A stretch of DNA of 64,000 nt from Dissostichus eleginoides. Its lineage: Eukaryota. Both the position numbers and the translations under genes were made by a program. The stretch spans positions 26,420,913 to 26,484,912 of the forward strand of contig CM062274.1 of NCBI GenBank assembly GCA_031216635.1, read 5' to 3'. Each line of letters starts with the position of its first letter. Within the stretch, counting starts at the first letter, position 1. Below are positions 36,155 to 47,561 of this stretch, in pieces. The notes beneath the pieces were generated by a model. It saw only the letters and a list, made by a program, of their open reading frames with translations, made no database searches and was not told the DNA's origin.

Positions 36155-36342
36155 CTCTCCTCTCCAGTAGGGGGCAGCACTGAGCTGTGGCGGCCCCTGC
36201 GAGCTCTCAGCCTGCTGCCTCCGTCCCGCGGCGTCAGGAACCTGCTGCTGCTGTCGGACGGACACATCCAGAACGCAGAGCTCACCCTGCAGCTGCTCAG
36301 AGACAACGCCGAGCACAGCCGCCTCTTCACCTGCGGCCTCAG
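36155..36342 (+). CDS. parp4: parp4 exon 23 (vWA)
   Basis: Translation LSSPVGGSTELWRPLRALSLLPPSRGVRNLLLLSDGHIQNAELTLQLLRDNAEHSRLFTCGL (human ...GNTDFWKTLRYLSLLYPARGSRNILLVSDGHLQDESLTLQLVKRSRPHTRLFACGI). Confidence 0.9.
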
Positions 36343-36981
36343 GTCTCAAAGGGTCATAGGTCACAGGGGAGGGGGGTTTTCTCAGAAAGGAGAATACATT
36401 CCTGCGTTTTAAAGGTCCCCTATTATACTGTTTTTCATCAATATATTATAGGTCTCAGATATAAAATCTTATTTTACCTGCCCCTTCTTAAAAAAAATAA
36501 CAACAAACCAAATGAAATAACCATACGAACGTAAAATAAAAGCAACTATTCTTTCAGTCACAGTTGCTTACAAATACTGAAACATAAAACCAGAACACAA
36601 TCAAAAGTAAACTTCAGACTGTCTGATTACGCTTTCTTTATACATTTTCTTAAACATATTGATCTAGTTATATGATTGGAAATATGTCCTGACACCAGAG
36701 ACACAAAGACATAATGGCTGAGCTGTCTAACAACATAAGAATGAAAACAAAGTAAACACAAGTCTGAATGAAAATAGAACAGAAATGGGGGAATGTCCCT
36801 ACTAAGTGTGTAAGGAATCTCACTCTCCCTCATAACCACGACCGATACGGGTTGTAACTCTCTCAGCTTTAATGACAAAACTTGTTGTATTCAGCCTTGC
36901 CTTGCTTTGCACACTGAGGTTCTTTTTCACAACAGACATTTTAAAGTTGCTGTTTTTTTTATGTTTGTTCGGTCATTTCAG

Positions 36982-37081
36982 CCCGACAGCCAATCGGCAC
37001 ATGCTCAGAGCCCTGGCTCAGGCCGGGGGCGGAGCCTTTGAGTTCTTCGACACAAAAACCAAACATAACTGGACAGATAAG
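36982..37081 (+). CDS. parp4: parp4 exon 24 (vWA)
   Basis: Translation SPTANRHMLRALAQAGGGAFEFFDTKTKHNWTDK (human GSTANRHVLRILSQCGAGVFEYFNAKSKHSWRKQ). Confidence 0.9.
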
Positions 37082-37565
37082 GTAGGACTGACTAGCTTTA
37101 CATTTTATTATAACACATTATTGGACTTTTTTACCCAATGCAAAACATGAATTTGAATCTGATGATCTCCATATGTGTTGAAAGTATCCACATGTTTCCC
37201 AAGAGGACCTAACACGTGTAATGTTGTAAAATGGGCCGACAGACTTTCACATTGAGAAAGAAATTGTTTTATTCATGTGTTAACCCTTTGTTAACTCTTC
37301 ACCCTTCAGTAAAGGGAACGGAGAACTTCCACATCAACACATTGTGCAATATAAATACCATTACCATCATTACAAAACACTCGCTGCTATATAACATGTG
37401 CAATATTATTATTATTAACAATGTGCTATGATAAACGTGCAATTAGGGTTGCACTACTAATTACTGGTTATATTGACATAAATTATGTGACCGTCTATGT
37501 TTCATGTAGATATTTAATTGCTCTTTATAAATAAAGTCTTATCTTATCTTTGATTTTGGCGGAAG

Positions 37566-37736
37566 GTTGCATCTCAGCTGCATCGTATGGCGTCTCCCAG
37601 CTGCAGTTCAGTGTCAGTGAAGTGGCAGCAGTTCAACCCGACAGCGCCCCCTCCTGTTCAAGCTCCCAAGCAGCTCCACGCTCTGTTCAATGATTGCCAC
37701 ACCCTGGTGTACGGCTTTGTGCCGCACTGCACTCAG
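37566..37736 (+). CDS. parp4: parp4 exon 25
   Basis: Translation (VASQ)LHRMASPSCSSVSVKWQQFNPTAPPPVQAPKQLHALFNDCHTLVYGFVPHCTQ (human ...RLCSPSCHSVSVKWQQLNPDVPEALQAPAQVPSLFLNDRLLVYGFIPHCTQ). An alternative in-frame acceptor lies at 37578 (atctcag|ctg). Confidence 0.85.
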
Positions 37737-37743
37737 GTACACA

Positions 37744-38258
37744 CTTAAAGGTCCCCTATTATACTGTTTTTCATCAATATATTATAGGTCTCAGATATAT
37801 ACAAAACATGTCTCTGAAGTGTTTGGCTCCAAACACCAAACAGATCATTGCAGCATCCCATAATCCCCTCTGTTTCAGCCCTGTTTCAAAAGTGCTGATT
37901 CTCTGTCTGTGTCTTTAGATGAAAATAAGGAGCCCCTCCCCACGCCCCTCTGAGAGATATTTGGTTAAAAAGAACACAATGGTGCTCTAGGAGGAGATTC
38001 AGGTGATAAGGTGGGGGGGGGGGTTACCTTGGTTGGTGATTGGCTAATGGTTTCACAAGCAAAAAATCATTATGACATCATAAAGTGGCCAAAATCTGAT
38101 CAGTTCATTTTCAGACATATTTTTATATAAATAGATCAGGACAAAAAGAGAGATAATCTTTTTTCCTGAAACTTTCAGAGTCTCTTTACACAGAGGGGAC
38201 ACATGTTGATGTAGAAGAGACATGAAAAAGTGCATTTTGCATAATAGGTGACCTTTAA
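37744..38258 (-). mobile_element. MITE family B copy, inverted relative to 30048-30560
   Basis: Starts ttaaaggtcccctattatactg and ends cattttgcataataggtgacctttaa. Internal sequence is co-linear with copy A in reverse complement (ORFs 30020..30256 and 38053..38382 translate alike). Lies in parp4 intron 25. Partial copies at 36408-36468 and 49268-49430. Related termini at 6766-6900 and 57345-57480. Confidence 0.7.
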
Positions 38259-39195
38259 TATACACGACTGGAAACAGCTTACTTTGCTTAGCCCAGGGGT
38301 CTGCAACCTTTTTGACCAAAAGAGCCATTTTGCTCCCTTTTCCAACAATTCTTTTTGTCTGGAGCCGCAAAACATATTTCATAGCTTGATAGCTTATAAA
38401 GTTGGATTTATTGTTATATCACAGACAAAAACTACATTTTTTTTTGCATTTATTATTTATTACATTATATAAAACTCTTAACCTCTAATAAGAAACAAAG
38501 AACTCCTATAAGGAGAATTAAAAAAAATACACAGGCCTACTTTAAAATAAAATAAACACAGCACTTGGGGAGTCCTCTGCACATTTGAAGGAAAGAAAAT
38601 AGAATTAAAATTGACCCACTTTGAAATAAATAAAACATAGCTGCACCCTAAAAAGAGTTAACTGATTGAATTATGACTGAAGATCGTCAGCTGTCTTCCT
38701 CTTCCGTTTTTCTCCTTGATACGTAAAGGCTGCAGCACCTTTGATGACTTCTCTCCACATATCAAACATACCGGTAAACCAGCATCGTGCCGGGGGTCAG
38801 GTTATTCACCTGTAAGAAAAGCCGCTGGCGCGGGACCGTAGCAGGATATGACGCATATTTTAGTTGACCTAATTAAAACCGTTTTGTTTTTTATTTATGT
38901 GTCACAGTATCACCTCAAAATACAAGATACGAAACATTTTCAGCCATGCAACAAAATGTAAATAGTCCTACAAATACTTTTATTTCCTACTTATTTTTGT
39001 CTAAGCTCAAGGGAGCCAGAGCAGAGGGCTTAAAGAGCCGCATGCAGCTCGAGAGCCGCAGGTAGCCGACCCCTGGCTTAGCCTATAAAATATTAAAAAC
39101 TTGATATGAACACAATAGGGCAAAAATATTTTAAAAGCTTCAATATTATCCAGCATTTTTCCTTGATAAATGACTCAAATAATGACTTATCACAG

Positions 39196-39276
39196 GCCAC
39201 CCTGCTCGGAAATCTCAGCGGTCAGGAGCTCCAAACCATGGTTTCAACCAGTGAGCTGCAGAAGACCAGAGGCACA
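39196..39276 (+). CDS. parp4: parp4 exon 26
   Basis: Translation ATLLGNLSGQELQTMVSTSELQKTRGT (human ATLCALIQEKEFRTMVSTTELQKTTGT). The donor ggcaca|gtaaga runs straight into (CA)n. Confidence 0.9.
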
Positions 39277-39281
39277 GTAAG

Positions 39282-39332
<51 letters not shown>
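39277..39332. repeat. (CA)n microsatellite starting at the parp4 exon 26 donor
   Basis: ggcaca|gtaagaacacacacacaca... Confidence 0.95.
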
Positions 39333-39334
<2 letters not shown>

Positions 39335-39616
39335 CACTCTCCAGTCCCTTTTGTATTTGTTAATCCTTCTGCTTGCACTTCTACTTTGAAAAACATTAAT
39401 GCCATGTAACGTTGATCGTCTGTTTATACACGTTTTGTGTTGTTCAAAACGTCCTCTGAATCCATGAATCCTGAATAACAGTTGATGAAACTGTTTGTTA
39501 ACAAAAAATTATACCATCTTACATAATTGCACTCATCTTAACTAGTTGACCCTGCAGACACTGATGCAGGTTGTTGTTGATTATAGATTATGATGTGTAT
39601 TAATGTGTGTGTTCAG

Positions 39617-39695
39617 TTTCTTCACAAGCTCACTGCGAGGGCCCTCATCAGGGATTACGAAGACGGAAGCCTGGATACCAATGAAGCCGAACATG

Positions 39696-39697
<2 letters not shown>
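39617..39697 (+). CDS. parp4: parp4 exon 27
   Basis: Translation FLHKLTARALIRDYEDGSLDTNEAEHE (human MIHKLAARALIRDYEDGILHENETSHE). The donor catgag|gtgtgt is the first repeat unit of a ~190 bp (GT)n tract. Confidence 0.9.
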
Positions 39698-39775
<78 letters not shown>

Positions 39776-39809
39776 TGTGTGTGTGTGTGTGGTGGTGTGT
39801 GTGTGTGTG

Positions 39810-39887
<78 letters not shown>
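39698..39887. repeat. Long compound (GT)n microsatellite starting at the parp4 exon 27 donor
   Basis: catgag|gtgtgtgtgt... about 190 bp with a few ggt/gtt interruptions. ORFs 39590-39981 on both strands are artifacts. Confidence 0.95.
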
Positions 39888-39890
<3 letters not shown>

Positions 39891-39962
39891 CAAAAGAAAC
39901 CTGCATCGCTTTAGACGTCTAGTCCCAGCTCCAGGTGTTAAACTGGACCTTTTTTGTTTCAG

Positions 39963-40058
39963 GGAAAGAAAGCGGAGCTGAAGCGCTTCATCATCCAGTT
40001 AAGCAAAGAGTTCTCCATCCTGTCTCAGTTCACCAGCTTTGTGGCCATCGAGGAAAGG
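39963..40058 (+). CDS. parp4: parp4 exon 28
   Basis: Translation GKKAELKRFIIQLSKEFSILSQFTSFVAIEER (human MKKQTLKSLIIKLSKENSLITQFTSFVAVEKR). Confidence 0.9.
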
Positions 40059-40159
40059 GTTTGTTAAATGAAAAACATTATTTATTTATATTTGTCCACC
40101 TTTCCAGCCCAGATTTGAAGGTTTTGTAGCACCCAACCATCCCCTCTACCTTGTTTTAG

Positions 40160-40318
40160 GACTCAGAACAACCAGAGGAAGGCTTTACAGACATCCCAAA
40201 GCTACTCGCCGAGGAAGATGTGGACTTCCTCCCCTACATGGGCTGGATTTCTCCTCAGGACAGTGAAGAGGAGGACTCTGAGGATTATTTGGAAAGGAGG
40301 AGGTCCAAATGCTTAATG
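40160..40318 (+). CDS. parp4: parp4 exon 29
   Basis: Translation DSEQPEEGFTDIPKLLAEEDVDFLPYMGWISPQDSEEEDSEDYLERRRSKCLM (human DENESPFPDIPKVSELIAKEDVDFLPYMSWQ). Donor aatg|gtaaagtcac. Confidence 0.88.
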
Positions 40319-40420
40319 GTAAAGTCACATTGTGCAATCAGGGGACAAGAAAAAAGCATCTTTACTTGTTATGATTTACTAATTGACAATATCCTTTCTG
40401 CCTTCGTCTCTCCGTTGTAG

Positions 40421-40480
40421 GAGTTTGGGTTCCAAGCAACCGCTGAGGATGACTCTGAAGAGATCTCTGATTGCTTAATG
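40421..40480 (+). CDS. parp4: parp4 exon 30 (duplicated mini-exon)
   Basis: Translation EFGFQATAEDDSEEISDCLM, with acceptor ccgttgtag| and donor aatg|gtaaagtcac. It belongs to a tandem exon+intron unit duplication, so its inclusion in mature mRNA is uncertain. Confidence 0.65.
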
Positions 40481-40582
40481 GTAAAGTCACATTGTTTAAT
40501 CGGGGGACAAGAAAAAGGCATCTTTACTTGTTATGATTTACTAATAGACAATATCCTTTCTGCCTTCGTCTCTCCGTTGTAG

Positions 40583-40873
40583 GAGTTTGGGTTCGAAGTG
40601 ACCGCTGAGGATGACTCTGGGGATGCTAAGGATGAGTCTGAGGATGAGTCTGAGGATGCTAAGGATGAGTCTGAGGATGAGTCTGAGGATGAGTCTAAGG
40701 ACTTGTCTAAGGATGAGTCTGAGGATGAGTTTGGGGATGCTAAGGATGAGTTTAAGGATGCTAAGGATGAGTCTGAGGATGCTAAGGATGAGTCTAAGGA
40801 TGCTAAGGATGAGTCTGAGGATGAGTCTGAGCCTCTGGTTGGATTAAAAAGTGATCCAATAATCCAAATGAAG
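40583..40873 (+). CDS. parp4: parp4 exon 31 (acidic octapeptide-repeat exon)
   Basis: Translation EFGFEVTAEDDSGDAKDESEDESEDAKDESEDESEDESKDLSKDESEDEFGDAKDEFKDAKDESEDAKDESKDAKDESEDESEPLVGLKSDPIIQMK. It carries 24-bp (DESEDAKD-type) repeats. The frame is confirmed by ORF 40598..40948. Confidence 0.8.
40617..40840 (+). repeat. parp4: Coding 24-bp tandem repeat (acidic DESEDAKD-like octapeptides) inside parp4 exon 31
   Basis: gatgagtctgaggatgctaag-type units repeated ~9 times with variants (gac ttg tct aag, gat gag ttt ggg/aag). Confidence 0.85.
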
Positions 40874-41453
40874 GTAATGTCACATTGCATTTACTATAAT
40901 AATGAGGAAACAAAAGCGTTTGCTTGTTGTTATTTGAAGATGCCCTAAAATCCCAAACTTCCCTCCAGAGGGAATTTCTCTGAAAAATAAAGCATTTTTT
41001 GTACATTTAAGCATGTAAACAGACAGGAGAGGCACAAAATACAAATATGAACCTGAAAATGAGGATAATATGTCCTCTTTAATAAATAACACTTTAACAA
41101 GTTGCATTTGTCTCCCTTTGTGCTTTGTATGATAGGGGACTTATTCCCGTAAAATGTTCAGCAACAAATTGCTGCTTCACATTTGCTATTTTAAAGTGAC
41201 AATAAATGCATCGCTTTCAGATAGAGCTGTTATTTGTAATGCATTGACTGTGTTAAAACTAAACAAAAACATACCAATTGGCAGGTTAACAAATCCTTAA
41301 TGAGTGTCCTCGTGTGGCGTCACTCACATGTTATTAGAGAGGCAGGACAATGCAATACTGCAACATTAATTTTTGTTTGAAAAAAATTCAATTGTCCAGT
41401 TATCATTTGTAAGAAAAAGGTTTTGACTTTTTTATTGTTTCTGTGTTTTTTAG

Positions 41454-43351
41454 CATGGGTCCTCTCTGAGAAGAAGAGGGGACGTGGACAGATCGGCACC
41501 TTCAGCAGCGTGTGAACCCCCCATGCGTGATTTTGAAGTAGCACTACATTCTTTTGAAATGCATCAATTGGATGAAGAATTGCATTTGGATTCAGACTGC
41601 TCATTTCATCCTCCATCATCTCCTCCTTTCCACATGAAGGAACTCACCCAAAAACGTTCTTTCCGTGCGCCTCTCCCTCTGATCAGTGGTCTTCCAAGCC
41701 GCTCATTTCATCCTCATGGACTAATGGCAGCAGAAGTTCCCAGACGCCACGTCATCATGTTCGGTGCAACGCAAGCTGCAACTGACTCAGATGTGTCGAT
41801 GAAGATGAGCGATGATGGGCCTGAACCTCCTGTGACAGGGAAAGCATTTTCATTCTCAAGACAGAAAAAAGCACTCTCCTATTCTGCTCATTCACTTCAA
41901 TGCCAGTCAACCTCTCAAGACCCTCCAGCTCCCCCTCCTCCTACTCTTGGTCCAGCTCCTCCGCTAGCTGAAATTTTACTTGGCACTAATGCCATGTCGG
42001 ATCAGGTCAGTGAGTCACTGGTGGGACGCGCTTTCGGGAACAGAGCGCTATCAGCTTCCTATCAAACAGGAACCTCCTCTGGTCTCTGGGATGCAGGATT
42101 GTTTGCACCCCAGGAACGCAGCTCGAGTTTTGGATCTCCTGTGAAAGGTCAGTCAGGAGGGTTTTCCAGTAGTGCAGCATCTTTATTCTCCTCAGATCAA
42201 AGACAAAAAGGAAGCTTATTTTCTGATGAACTTGAAAGGGCAGGCTTTGGTCTCATGGGTTGTGCGCTTGAAGAAGAACCCGTTAGACAAGATCAGCCAA
42301 TGAAAGATGCCCCTCCTGTTTCACTTGATGAAGCATCAGATGTCGATGTAGAGCGACGTATGCACAAATCCACAGGTAGACCATTAGCAATGCTTGAAGA
42401 AGATGATCCCTCATGTGGAAGTTCTTGGGGAGGACTGGTCCACATGAAGGAACTCGCCCAAAAATCTCCTCTTCGTGTGCCACTCCCTCCGGGTGGTCGT
42501 CAAATTCCCTCATTTCATCCTCGAGAACAAATGGCAGCAGAAGTTCCCCAACGCCACAGCATCATGAACGGTGCAACGCGAGCTGCAACTGATTCAGATG
42601 TGATGATGATGATGAACGACCGTGCGCCTGAACCTCCTGTCACAGGGAAAGCATTTTCATACAGAAATGCACTGTCCTATTCTGCACATTCACTTCAACG
42701 CCAGTCCACCTCTCGAGACCCTCCAGCTCCCCCTCCTCCTACTCTTGGTTCAGCTCCTCCGCTAGCTGAAAGTTTACTTGGCACTAATGCCATGCCGGAT
42801 CAGGTCAGTGAGCAAATGGAATCACAAGCTCTCAGGATCAGAGCGCTATCACCTTCCTATCAAACAGGAATCTCCTCTGGTCTCTGGTCTGGACTCCAAA
42901 GCAGCTTGAGTTGTCCCACCTTTCCAGGTGCTATGAATATCCATGTCGGTGCGTCTGATTTGGATATGACAACTGAATGTGCGACTGAATCTCCTGTGAA
43001 AGGTCAGCCAGGAGGGTTTTCCAGGAGTGCATCATCTTTATTCTCCACAGCTCAGCTCTTATTTTCTGATGAACAAGAAATGGCAGGCTTTGGTCTCAGG
43101 GGTTGTGCGCTTGAAGGAAAACCCATTAGACAAGATCAGCCAATGAAAGATGCCCCTCCTGTTCCACTTGATGAAGCATCAGGTGTCCATGTAGAGCGAC
43201 GTAGGCACAAATCCAGAGGTAGAGCATTAGCAATGCCTGAAGAAGATGATCCCTCATGTGGAAGTTCTTGGGGAGGACTGCTCCCGCGTAAACGTGGGAT
43301 TGGTTTTTTAAAGGCCTCCAGGATGCGTCAATCAGCTGATCAACCATTTGA
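41454..43351 (+). CDS. parp4: parp4 exon 32 (1.9 kb exon with two ~270-aa tandem repeats; S/P-rich)
   Basis: Open frame 41454-43352 (ORF 41484..43355). Acceptor gtgttttttag|cat is in phase with exon 31. Two ~810 bp tandem copies (FHMKELTQK...SCGSSWGGL / VHMKELAQK...SCGSSWGGL). The proposed donor tttga|gtgagt at 43352 overlaps an in-frame TGA. Confidence 0.78.
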
Positions 43352-43682
43352 GTGAGTCCCCAAACGTTTTTTTGTTTTAATAGATAAGCTCCTACTAAGA
43401 AAACTGTGATAACTATTGAATAATAGTTGTTGACAAAAAATGCTCTACTTATTTATAATTTTTTTAAAGGCTTTGGTTGACAAAATTAACATAGATGAAT
43501 TCATCTGCATGTTAACTGAAAAGTATTGTTGTAAATCCTCTGATTATGTACATGTATGCATGTGGGAAAAAAAGTCAGTATATGTGTGTATTTATGTTTA
43601 CATTCTTTGATTTATGTGTGTTTTTTAATACACAACATCCAGTGTTCTCTAAGAGTGTCCTGTTGTGATCATGTCGTTTCAG

Positions 43683-43749
43683 GAGGAAGTCAGCAGACCC
43701 TGAAGCGCTGAAGCTCAGATGGACAGAGATCTTCCAAATGCAGCATTCG
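43683..43749 (+). CDS. parp4: parp4 exon 33
   Basis: Translation (E)RKSADPEALKLRWTEIFQMQHS. Acceptor tcgtttcag|, donor attcg|gtaaga. It is in frame only with the 43352 donor of exon 32. Confidence 0.75.
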
Positions 43750-44128
43750 GTAAGAAAATATCAAAATGAACGTATTGTTCTCGAGTACCTTTTCTTTTCC
43801 TGCTGACAGGATACAATGACAGCCCTTTGAATGGTTTATCAATTCTGATCCTTTGATCATTTCTGTGTGAAACCCATTTGGGATGATTAGCTGTCGGAAG
43901 GCTGCTTTGCACTTCTTGTTAAAACACTGTAACTATAGCGATACAGCGGTTAGAGATATGTTTACTGACAGCGGGGCAAATTTGGGTTTCAAAAGCAATC
44001 TTATGCAACGTGGCGATGTTCGGTATTATCGTACAAGCATTTTGGAAAAATACTTTAGATGCTTTTAAAAGTACTAATACCTAACTGTGGAAATACTCCA
44101 CTCCTTATCATGCACTCAAACCCTTACT

Positions 44129-44511
44129 TAAAGGTAGGGTAGGTAAGAATGGAGAAACCAGCTTGAGTGCGCTAGAATTTGAAAGTACACAACCGAAAGA
44201 AATCTGCCCCTTCCTTCAGACTTCCTTACAGAGCCCCTCCAACACACACGAACGCGCACATGACCAATGAGGGCACGAGATAAGTTTGTGCACAGATGGA
44301 AGGCTGACAGGCAGGTAGGCCATCCAGTTATTTTAGCCGGGCCGGCTCAGATGATTGGTCGTGCTTTTTACAGCGCACGGCTTCCAAGATGAAATATTTG
44401 TATGTATTTATTGTCAAAGCATTTAATTTATTCATTGCTATCGGGATGTTAAGAGCATTCCATGGAATATAACAAAAAGTGTTTCTGAAGTGAATTACCT
44501 ACCCCACCTTT
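44129..44511 (-). mobile_element. MITE family A copy (full, ~385 bp)
   Basis: aaaggtagggtaggtaagaatggagaaaccagcttgagtgcgctag ... gaattacctaccccacctttaag. In parp4 intron 33. Orientation opposite to copies 1 and 3. Confidence 0.65.
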
Positions 44512-45221
44512 AAGTAAAAGTATATAAACATTATCAGTAAAATGCATTAGTTAATCGTAAGTAAAAGTTTGCAATGAAATATATCATCAGTGAGTGTTTT
44601 ACTATTAAATGGTGTTTTTTGGATGTATTTATTGCTGCAGTAATGCTTATGTTATTGTGCTGCTGCAGATGGTTAAGGTTATATGTACATTGCAGGTCCT
44701 TTACATACAAGTTGAATCTACAGCAATTCATTATATTCTATAAGATTATGTTTGTAGCTTTGTCGCTGTCCTGCAGAACCATGTATCTCTGAACATTTAA
44801 AAAAACGATGTGATCATACATTTTTCTGCTGATCCAAAAGGCTTTTTTCATTATTTATTCACATTAGGAAGTATGATATATTTTTCAACACATAAAGGGA
44901 ACACCTATCCTTCATCAGATTATCACAAACACATCTTAAGATGCATGGTTTTAAACTGGAGAGGAAGGGAATGAAAATTGGTGATCTGAAATCTATTTGC
45001 TGCATAAAAGGGAAATACTCAAATTCAAATTTAAGGTACTTTTATTAAACGTAAATACAGTACTGGAGTAAATGTACTTGGTTGAGTTCCACAACTCTGT
45101 ACATTACACATATAACCTTTTGCACCTTTTTCTATTTCTATTTTTTTTTTTTAGCTGGCACTTTAACCATGGGGGCGTAATTACTACTTTATGAATTTGT
45201 GACATTTTATTTGTGTTTCAG

Positions 45222-45324
45222 GAGGGTTACTGGCAGTTCACCGCAGAGCTGGGTGAGCTGATCAATTTGGATGTGGACCTATTCGCCAACGTGTTCCTGA
45301 AAAACAAAGGCATCCAGTCTCTGG
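45222..45324 (+). CDS. parp4: parp4 exon 34 (MVP-interacting region)
   Basis: Translation EGYWQFTAELGELINLDVDLFANVFLKNKGIQSLG (human EDGFWKLTPELGLILNLNTNGLHSFLKQKGIQSLG). Confidence 0.88.
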
Positions 45325-46204
45325 GTGAGGACTCTCAGAAACAGATGCAGCCTTTAGAGTGGGAATAGATTTGTCATTTCAGATCATTTCCACATCTTTC
45401 TGTGGCCAAAAGATTGGGTTTACACGTGGAGATAGAAGTATCATCGCCGAATAGTGCCAACATGTTCTTATTAAGTTTAATATAACCTTCCAAGCACTAT
45501 AATATTAACCAATCAGACGAGAATGTCCTATTTGTATTCATGAGTTTTTAGTTTTTAAATCATTAAGATGAGTTTCAAAATAACCTGTTAATGACTAAGT
45601 CTCTTTCCTTGTCAAAATATAAGAAAAAACACTTTGATTCAAAATATAACTCCTCTCTTTGGGGGTTCTATTAAAAGGTATTTACCAGTGAAAAGTTTAA
45701 TATTGAATGTAAAATCAGTATTCAAAGTAAGTAAGTTGCGAGAGCCATTACCAGTGTTAAAACTCAAGGGAGAAGAGAACAATAACCTCAAAACTGACAC
45801 ATTTTAGTGTGTGAAAAGGGAGACAATTGCAAACAATTATCATGCCATGCCTCTGCTTTGTAGAGACTTCAATCAAAAGCCACATTTTCCACTTTTCAGC
45901 ACAAGTATATTTCATGATAGTTTGGGTTATATTTGTCCAGGGTTTGAGATTAACATCTGCTTCACAATGGAGATGTAAGAGATGTTTTTGTGGGGCTCCA
46001 AGTGGAAAAATACACTTAAAAAAATGCAACTGTGACATCTCTGTCCACAATAAATGTGCCTGTCTTTCAGTTTTCATTGAGGACTCTCGCATAGTTGCAC
46101 TGCTTTTTCTTTTTTAAGTCTTACAGATATCTCAGCCATGATGATGAGTTTGTTTCCCACGGATGTTAAAAGCATGTACTGTACTTGTCTGTGTGTGTGT
46201 TTAG

Positions 46205-46337
46205 GTGTGAAGGCCCATGCAGACATCCTGAAGCTGGTGGCGACTCTGCTGGTTCTGCAGCTGATGAGAGAGGAGAAGATAGAGGAGGGCAAACTGCTCC
46301 GCACCCTCTTCTGCCTGGACGACTCCCCTCTGCCCAG
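46205..46337 (+). CDS. parp4: parp4 exon 35 (MVP-interacting region)
   Basis: Translation VKAHADILKLVATLLVLQLMREEKIEEGKLLRTLFCLDDSPLPR (human VKGRECLLDLIATMLVLQFIRTRLEKEGIVFKSLMKMDDPSISR). Confidence 0.88.
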
Positions 46338-47290
46338 GTCTGTCCAAAACTTAATCGAACAACATGAAGATCCTGAATAAAAACACCTAAACTGATTCAA
46401 AGCTTAAAGGCTTACACTGCAACCAAAGTACAAAGGTGTGAAAAGAGGAAATGTAACAGGAAGAGAAACACATCACAACACAACAAAGCATTTATCTCTC
46501 GAATCATAACCTTGAGATGCCCATTGACTTTAAACACTTAAATATGTTGTTCTCATTTGCAAAATATTCAATATTTATTGCAATGTTCTTCTCTGGGTGA
46601 TTAATTTTTTTGGTAAATGTTTTTATTGATTTTCTTTCTTTTGACAAAAGCAAGTGATACAGATTCAGTAAGGATATATACACATACACATGCTAACAAA
46701 TCTTAATTTCAATCCCACCACTCTCCCACCCACCACCCATTAACCCATTGAGTTACAGGATACAGAGCCCTTTAACAGTAAATACAGTGTTTTCATAATT
46801 ACACTAGTTCAAGGGGGGCAAAGAAGGAAGAAAAAAAAAAAAGCACAGAGATAAACACAAAGAAAGAAAATTATAATAATGATAATGGAATAGAAAGAGA
46901 AAGAGAAAAATTATGAATCATAATATATAAATATATATTAAATGCTCACCACTCAATCCAACCTTATTCTTTATCAAGTGGATCTTGTAAGGAGTCATAG
47001 AAGTCCAGAAAGGGTTTCCATGTTCTAATAAAGGTGTTAAGGAGCCCCTGAGTAAGAACTTAATTTTCTCTAACTGTAAGAAGTACATAACATCTTTGAC
47101 CCACTGAGAAAAGGATGGAGGGGAATGTTGCTTCCATTTTAGAAGAATCAAACGTCTCGCAAGAAGTGTAGAAAAGGCTATAACTACATGGGCACTGTTT
47201 GGTAGGGTCTGGGTGATTTTTTGAGACTAGCTGTCACTCTATCCAGAGTGGCAACCTGTTTTCATATCGACTTTCTTCTTCTTCCTCCAG

Positions 47291-47561
47291 GCCTGAGCGT
47301 TGGGAGGAGGTGAAGAGGGCGGTGGACTGGGTCTGCTGGGCGGACCGGCAGTACCCGTGTGTCTACAGCCGGCTGGAGTTTGGATTCAGCTGGGAGTCCT
47401 CCACCCGCCAGCTGCTGGGCTTCGAAGGCCTCCCTCCCTTCTCCGCTCTCAGGGGGCTGAACCTGCAGAAGACCGTCCCCAGGTCCTGGTCCACTGAGCA
47501 GGATAGTGAGAGGGAGGTTCATACCCCTTTGCCTTTTTATGGGGATTACATAATCTATTAG
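47291..47561 (+). CDS. parp4: parp4 terminal coding exon 36 (stop TAG 47559-47561)
   Basis: Translation (R)PERWEEVKRAVDWVCWADRQYPCVYSRLEFGFSWESSTRQLLGFEGLPPFSALRGLNLQKTVPRSWSTEQDSEREVHTPLPFYGDYIIY* (human NIPWAFEAIKQASEWVRRTEGQYPSICPRLELGNDWDSATKQLLGLQPIS). Frame matches ORF 47310..47561. Confidence 0.82.

Follow-up and report, generated by a model that had tools for sequence, protein, structure and literature searches.

A 162-bp internal tandem duplication multiplies a short intron in a teleost PARP4 gene

Introns can multiply when a genomic segment that already contains one is copied in place: in this known kind of event, a tandem internal duplication multiplies a pre-existing intron together with exon sequence from both of its sides (PMC4974935). 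Among the examples given in that source's account of earlier work are the TOUCH3 gene of Arabidopsis (Knowles & McLysaght 2006) and segmental duplications of whole introns (Gao & Lynch 2009). The Rogers model (2011), as cited in the same source, starts from an exonic duplication that includes AGGT, makes its new intron from exonic sequence and leaves the peptide unchanged. For vertebrates, intron gain is considered to be very rare (PMC3257199).

The gene studied here is better known for another kind of variability. The largest PARP4 exon (exon 30 in human) encodes a disordered region of ~360 amino acids (Daugherty et al. 2014, PMC4038475), which is highly variable in sequence and length among vertebrates and is under positive selection in primates and bats (PMC4038475). 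In this study, we describe a 162-bp duplication at the upstream edge of the PARP4 disordered linker, just before the hypervariable largest exon. By a tandem duplication within the gene, it has multiplied an intron that already existed and is, as such, an event of a known kind. We consider it likely that this internal tandem duplication in teleost PARP4 is specific to one lineage and that the mini-exon which it created is to be expected in a substantial share of transcripts.

The duplicated unit in PARP4

On the + strand of the window (the whole 64-kb stretch of DNA that was analysed), exon translations match the Pfam families BRCT_2 (1.7e-10), PARP (3.1e-13), VIT (2.7e-34) and VWA_3 (7.5e-15), and their arrangement within one gene, BRCT, PARP catalytic, VIT, VWA, is that of PARP4, the vault poly(ADP-ribose) polymerase. 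A search with the peptide of exons 28-31 brought up fish protein fragments that are colinear with the + strand over 36161-47453 (tblastn), downstream of the exons that gave these Pfam matches. As regards a C-terminal vault-interaction region, two of the fragments, P0002 and P0003, which carry a precomputed PF26156 assignment, map to 45216-47453, where the concatenated exons of the window gave no Pfam match. The gene is PARP4.

In a PARP4 intron that precedes the VWA exons (+ strand, roughly 34-36 kb), an open segment (...LEKLVHAFIFSRLDYCNGVFTGLTKKSIRKLQLIQNAAARVLTNTKK) resembles what is left of a retroelement ORF of a kind common in fish genomes. Closer to the duplication, the donor after the exon ending at 39697 (...EAEHE/gtgtgt, the slash marking the splice junction) is the first unit of a (GT)n microsatellite of ~190 nt, which occupies 39698-39887 and fills most of a 265-nt intron, and the preceding intron starts with gtaagaac and continues as (AC)28 (39283-39337). 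Long GT/AC tracts at donors could affect splicing or vary in length.

The duplication reaches from the end of exon 29 into the start of exon 31, with the following features:

40160..40318, + strand: exon 29, 159 nt, phase 0-0, placed by tblastn of fish PARP4 fragments, translation and splice flanks
40310..40471, + strand: copy 1 of the 162-bp unit, made up of the final 9 nt of exon 29, the 102-nt intron and the first 51 nt of the mini-exon
40319..40420, + strand: intron copy 1, 102 nt, gtaaag...tactaat (putative branch site)...polypyrimidine tract...gttgtag
40421..40480, + strand: mini-exon, 60 nt, phase 0-0, 20 codons, EFGFQATAEDDSEEISDCLM
40472..40619, + strand: copy 2 of the 162-bp unit, 148 nt of recognisable homology made up of the final 9 nt of the mini-exon, the 102-nt intron and the first 37 nt of exon 31
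40481..40582, + strand: intron copy 2, 102 nt, identical to intron copy 1 at 97 of 102 positions
40583..40873, + strand: exon 31, 291 nt, phase 0-0, starting with EFGFEVTAEDDSGD
40873..40887, + strand: third donor context, GGTAATGTCACATTG, 14 of 15 nt identical to both duplicated donors

Two repeat searches agree on the unit. Tandem Repeats Finder reports period 162 at 40310-40619, with 94% matches, 0% indels and a score of 564, and a second search of the window, with find_repeats, returned two 148-nt copies at 95% and a spacing of 162 (family D5); the unit is thus present head to tail in 1.9 copies on the + strand, at 94-95% identity. We mapped the register of the duplication by comparing each position x with x+162. 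Homology in this register spans 40310-40457 and includes 8 differences in 148 nt—5 in the intron and 3 in the 37 nt at the start of the exon—and no identical tract exceeds 48 nt. Both this comparison and Tandem Repeats Finder place the two copies directly next to each other, with no spacer. The unit is not a dispersed repeat, because blastn matches in the rest of the window are weak and short (16-25 nt, E of at least ~0.1); several of them sit in the adjacent acidic repeat array.

Exon 29 encodes DSEQPEEGFTDIPKLLAEEDVDFLPYMGW...RRRSKCLM and is followed directly by gtaaag; its last 9 nt (tgcttaatg) are part of the 162-bp unit. The donor (ATG/GTAAAG), the tactaat motif, the polypyrimidine tract and the acceptor (gttgtag/G) are the same in both intron copies, and none of the five differences between them (copy-1 positions 40334, 40335, 40340, 40355 and 40384) falls in these splice signals. 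By consensus the donor is a weak one, without G at +5 and with T at -2, features that the orthologous donors of related fishes share. The length of the intron is a multiple of 3 and its sequence is open up to the final TAG, as would be expected by chance with a probability of roughly p ~0.2. Since exon 29, the mini-exon and exon 31 are all phase 0-0 and open, the frame is kept whether the mini-exon is included or skipped.

These data largely bear out the original prediction, which had assigned the locus to parp4 and described a tandem duplication of an exon-plus-intron unit, with introns of exactly 102 nt and with phase 0 in all copies, so that the frame stays unbroken: the period-162 repeat contains a 102-nt intron with exon sequence on each side, both intron copies have that length, and the domain order confirms the gene. 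Its account of the extent of the duplication needs revision. It had counted three consecutive copies, placed the start at 40311 and spoken of extra mini-exons in the plural, but the junction pattern that it quoted occurs exactly twice, the shared tgcttaatg begins at 40310, and the duplication creates one mini-exon.

What could be taken for a third copy is the donor at 40874, after exon 31, whose likeness to the other two is confined to the shared GGTAA[A/T]GTCACATTG (14 of 15 nt). This 15-nt similarity has p ~0.006 against shuffles (0.6% of which reach the score), and beyond the donor context a MAFFT alignment finds merely patchy similarity; an older third unit downstream of exon 31 was rejected, the significance being limited to those 15 nt. 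No significant similarity was found between intron c, downstream of exon 31, and the orthologous intron b of related fishes, and the exon-31 donor context is unlike the orthologous donors of these relatives (gtgagttcc..., gttagtccc...). The likeness of the exon-31 donor to the duplicated donors could be a short conversion tract, the remnant of an older duplication, or chance.

Origin of the mini-exon and the state in related fishes

The mini-exon is chimeric: it joins sequence from the start of the exon downstream to sequence from the end of the exon upstream, as a tandem duplication with breakpoints in both flanking exons would produce. According to the register comparison, nt 1-37 of the mini-exon copy the 5' end of exon 31, with 34 of 37 positions identical, whereas the 3' end of exon 29 recurs as nt 52-60 (tgcttaatg). 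The view that the 60-nt exon as a whole copies the start of exon 31 therefore applies to its first 37 nt and fails for its last 9. The 3 exonic differences in the 37 nt change both affected codons (Q/E and A/V). The 14 nt that lie in between (nt 38-51, at 40458-40471, AAGAGATCTCTGAT) have an in-register match to neither parent, and the exact breakpoints are uncertain for this reason.

One breakpoint probably lay within the final ~9-20 nt of exon 29, and the other at a distance of ~37-50 nt from the start of the acidic exon that comes next. The unit would therefore carry the entire 102-nt intron and all of its splice signals, and the outcome would be one extra intron, by multiplication of the pre-existing one, and one new symmetric 60-nt exon. 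We are highly confident of this structural account. As to the route, an unequal exchange between the GA[G/T]GACTCTG[A/G]GGAT motifs in exon 29 (40274) and in the next exon (40613) is possible but not supported, as it needs an extra 15-nt deletion: the spacing of the two motifs is 177 nt once the 162-bp unit is removed.

For the state in relatives, we used Logan genomic contigs, which were fetched for seven of the matches. Four lineages extend past exon 29; the contigs L010 and L011 end before exon 29 and were left out of the comparison. The related fish contigs are 73-93% identical to the window at the nucleotide level in the aligned pieces. The four lineages have the following structure downstream of exon 29:

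L001: intron of 82 nt, next phase 0-0 exon of 57 nt (contig interval 3021-3333)
L004: intron of 231 nt, next phase 0-0 exon of 48 nt (contig interval 621-1034)
L008: intron of 84 nt, next phase 0-0 exon of 123 nt (contig interval 745-1103)
L009: intron of 85 nt, next phase 0-0 exon of 117 nt (contig interval 706-1032)

A longer intron and then the large exon come after the short exon in all four. The mini-exon is absent from each of them, the donor and acceptor words occur once each at the locus, with no second copy of either, and L001 contains no tandem repeat. The short intron itself has orthologs of 82-85 nt with gtaaac.../...tgttgtag ends among the relatives, reading gtaaac...tgattttactaat...ctgttgtag in L008 and L009, and exon 31 of the window is the ortholog of their single short acidic exon, expanded by a 21-bp array. 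Because the four related lineages have one intron and one short exon, the duplication appears to be lineage-specific and derived, a polarity for which parsimony argues by setting one gain here against repeated loss elsewhere. The search of a 5.8-billion-protein collection returned just partial fish PARP4 fragments, with 76-94% identity over exons 28-29, and a cleaner query, from which the low-complexity part had been removed, had no match in the same collection; neither the species of the window nor a close relative with the duplication was found in the protein and contig collections.

The short exon after exon 29 varies greatly in sequence and ranges from 48 to 123 nt among the lineages, yet it is always phase 0-0 and acidic. 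It has an aromatic/aliphatic core, which reads DLYFD, FDLFE or DLWED in the relatives and EFGFE in the window, and this acidic-aromatic core may be a short linear motif.

Tandem expansions in the acidic linker

Most of exon 31 consists of a 21-bp coding repeat (GCTAAGGATGAGTCTGAGGAT, AKDESED) with ~10 units at 40604-40823, inside which a 9- and a 12-bp periodicity are nested, and D, E or S account for 58 of the 97 residues of the exon (60%). Three frames of the + strand and one of the - strand are all open across 40604-40823, and an open frame alone is therefore no proof of coding in this interval.

The next exon, which is the largest of the gene, has expanded on another scale:

41454..43351, + strand: largest PARP4 exon, 1898 nt, acceptor ttttag/cat, donor GA/gtgagt

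Its human counterpart is the hypervariable, disordered "exon 30" of PARP4. The exon of the window contains an in-frame tandem duplication of ~800-850 bp, whose copies at 41629-42441 and 42439-43284 are 84-93% identical and which roughly doubles the disordered region; the counterpart in L001 has 879 nt, the length of a single copy. Together with the 21-bp array and the ~0.8-kb duplication, the 162-bp duplication forms a nested set of three tandem expansions that lengthen this poorly constrained linker.

Splicing outcome and comparison with known systems

On the basis of the splice signals, we lean towards a substantial inclusion of the mini-exon in the mRNA. The parental intron has to be spliced, and its signals are the same; moreover, the usual mode of removal for introns of ~100 nt is intron definition, in which the closest sites have the advantage. 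As the donor is weak and has no G at +5, it is also plausible that some transcripts skip the mini-exon in frame. If included, the mini-exon would lengthen the disordered linker, which lies between the VWA region and the hypervariable largest exon, by 20 acidic residues, probably with little effect on the folded domains.

The opposite outcome, in which the duplication is silent, is unlikely in our judgement. Exon 29 would then be joined to 40583, or 40421-40480 would be skipped, so that the second unit would lie inside a 264-nt intron and the protein would be unchanged. The weak donor, with neither G at +5 nor a consensus base at -2 (T), the very short length of the exon (60 nt) and the fact that skipping preserves the frame would all suit such an outcome, as would the lack of a purifying-selection signal in the exonic copy (3 differences in 37 nt, with both codons changed, compared to 5 in 102 in the intron). 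Yet the acceptor, branch-site motif and donor that serve the mini-exon are base for base those of a parental intron that must be used, recognition of ~100-nt introns by intron definition works in favour of the nearest sites, and the frame is still open, without any indel, at ~5% divergence. We regard it as very unlikely that the unit is a hypermutable coding VNTR, whose copy number would vary between individuals and give rise to allelic length variants of PARP4. This is the stronger form of the built-in isoform or allelic length variation that the original prediction put forward, a suggestion that gains no support from the present data. Unequal exchange is possible between head-to-tail direct repeats, and each unit gained or lost would keep the frame; against this, there are just 1.9 copies, whose ~5% divergence implies a long coexistence without homogenisation, and 48 nt, the longest stretch over which they are identical, is little for homologous unequal exchange to work efficiently. 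With two copies, this divergence and this tract length, recurrent unequal crossing-over is expected to be infrequent.

That the assembly falsely duplicated a 162-bp segment, or placed two haplotypes in tandem, seems to us barely credible. Assemblies are known to contain tandem duplicates made in error, a general point with nothing specific to this case, but duplicates made by an assembler are essentially identical, and 8 substitutions in 148 nt speak against such an origin; the copies also diverge completely at the junction, single reads span a unit of 162 bp, and the neighbouring exon has independent tandem expansions at other scales, as would be consistent with a real property of the linker. 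The three expansions of 21 bp, 162 bp and ~0.8 kb have also been considered together, as an adaptive and ongoing lengthening of a fast-evolving, possibly pathogen-facing region, with the mini-exon as a regulated cassette exon that might duplicate the acidic-aromatic motif EFGF[Q/E] (compare DLFE, DLYFD and DLWED in the relatives); to this proposal we give very little credence.

If the mini-exon is spliced in, as we expect from the intact splice signals, the locus would represent a clean intron gain in a vertebrate, with an identified source and with an intron and a symmetric exon gained in one step. Given that intron gain is considered very rare in vertebrates, a teleost case whose source sequence is identified is of modest value as documentation. 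The locus also offers a base-resolution view of how the disordered linker of PARP4 changes in length by nested tandem duplications at three scales. Otherwise, the structural variant is an ordinary one, the region being poorly constrained, and it opens no new mechanism or question.

The closest described system is intron multiplication as exemplified by TOUCH3 (summarised in PMC4974935): at both loci, a whole intron is copied with exon sequence from both sides, which adds one intron and one exon and supplies ready-made splice signals. The present case differs from TOUCH3-type cases, as they are outlined there, in that it concerns teleost PARP4, a unit of just 162 bp and a disordered acidic linker, and in that the added exon is predicted from genomic sequence. 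With the Rogers type (2011, cited in PMC4974935), the PARP4 duplication shares that a small tandem genomic duplication alters the number of introns. Unlike in that model, the source of the new PARP4 intron is an existing intron, and the peptide becomes 20 residues longer; intron creation of the Rogers type is ruled out, as the new intron is identical to the neighbouring intron at 97 of 102 positions and the frame gains 20 codons. Mutually exclusive tandem exons (e.g. PMC8373072) likewise have a neighbouring exon that is partly homologous by local duplication and keeps the frame, but the two PARP4 exons would add up instead of replacing each other, and nothing makes them mutually exclusive. A mutually exclusive pair is ruled out here, since the exons measure 60 and 291 nt and their homology is limited to the first 37 nt. 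Finally, the duplication shares its gene and its linker, from the VWA region to the C-terminal vault-interaction region, with the hypervariable region of PARP4 (PMC4038475). That work deals with the largest exon and with its substitutions and differences in length, whereas the duplication described here affects the small exons upstream and has changed the exon-intron structure of the gene.
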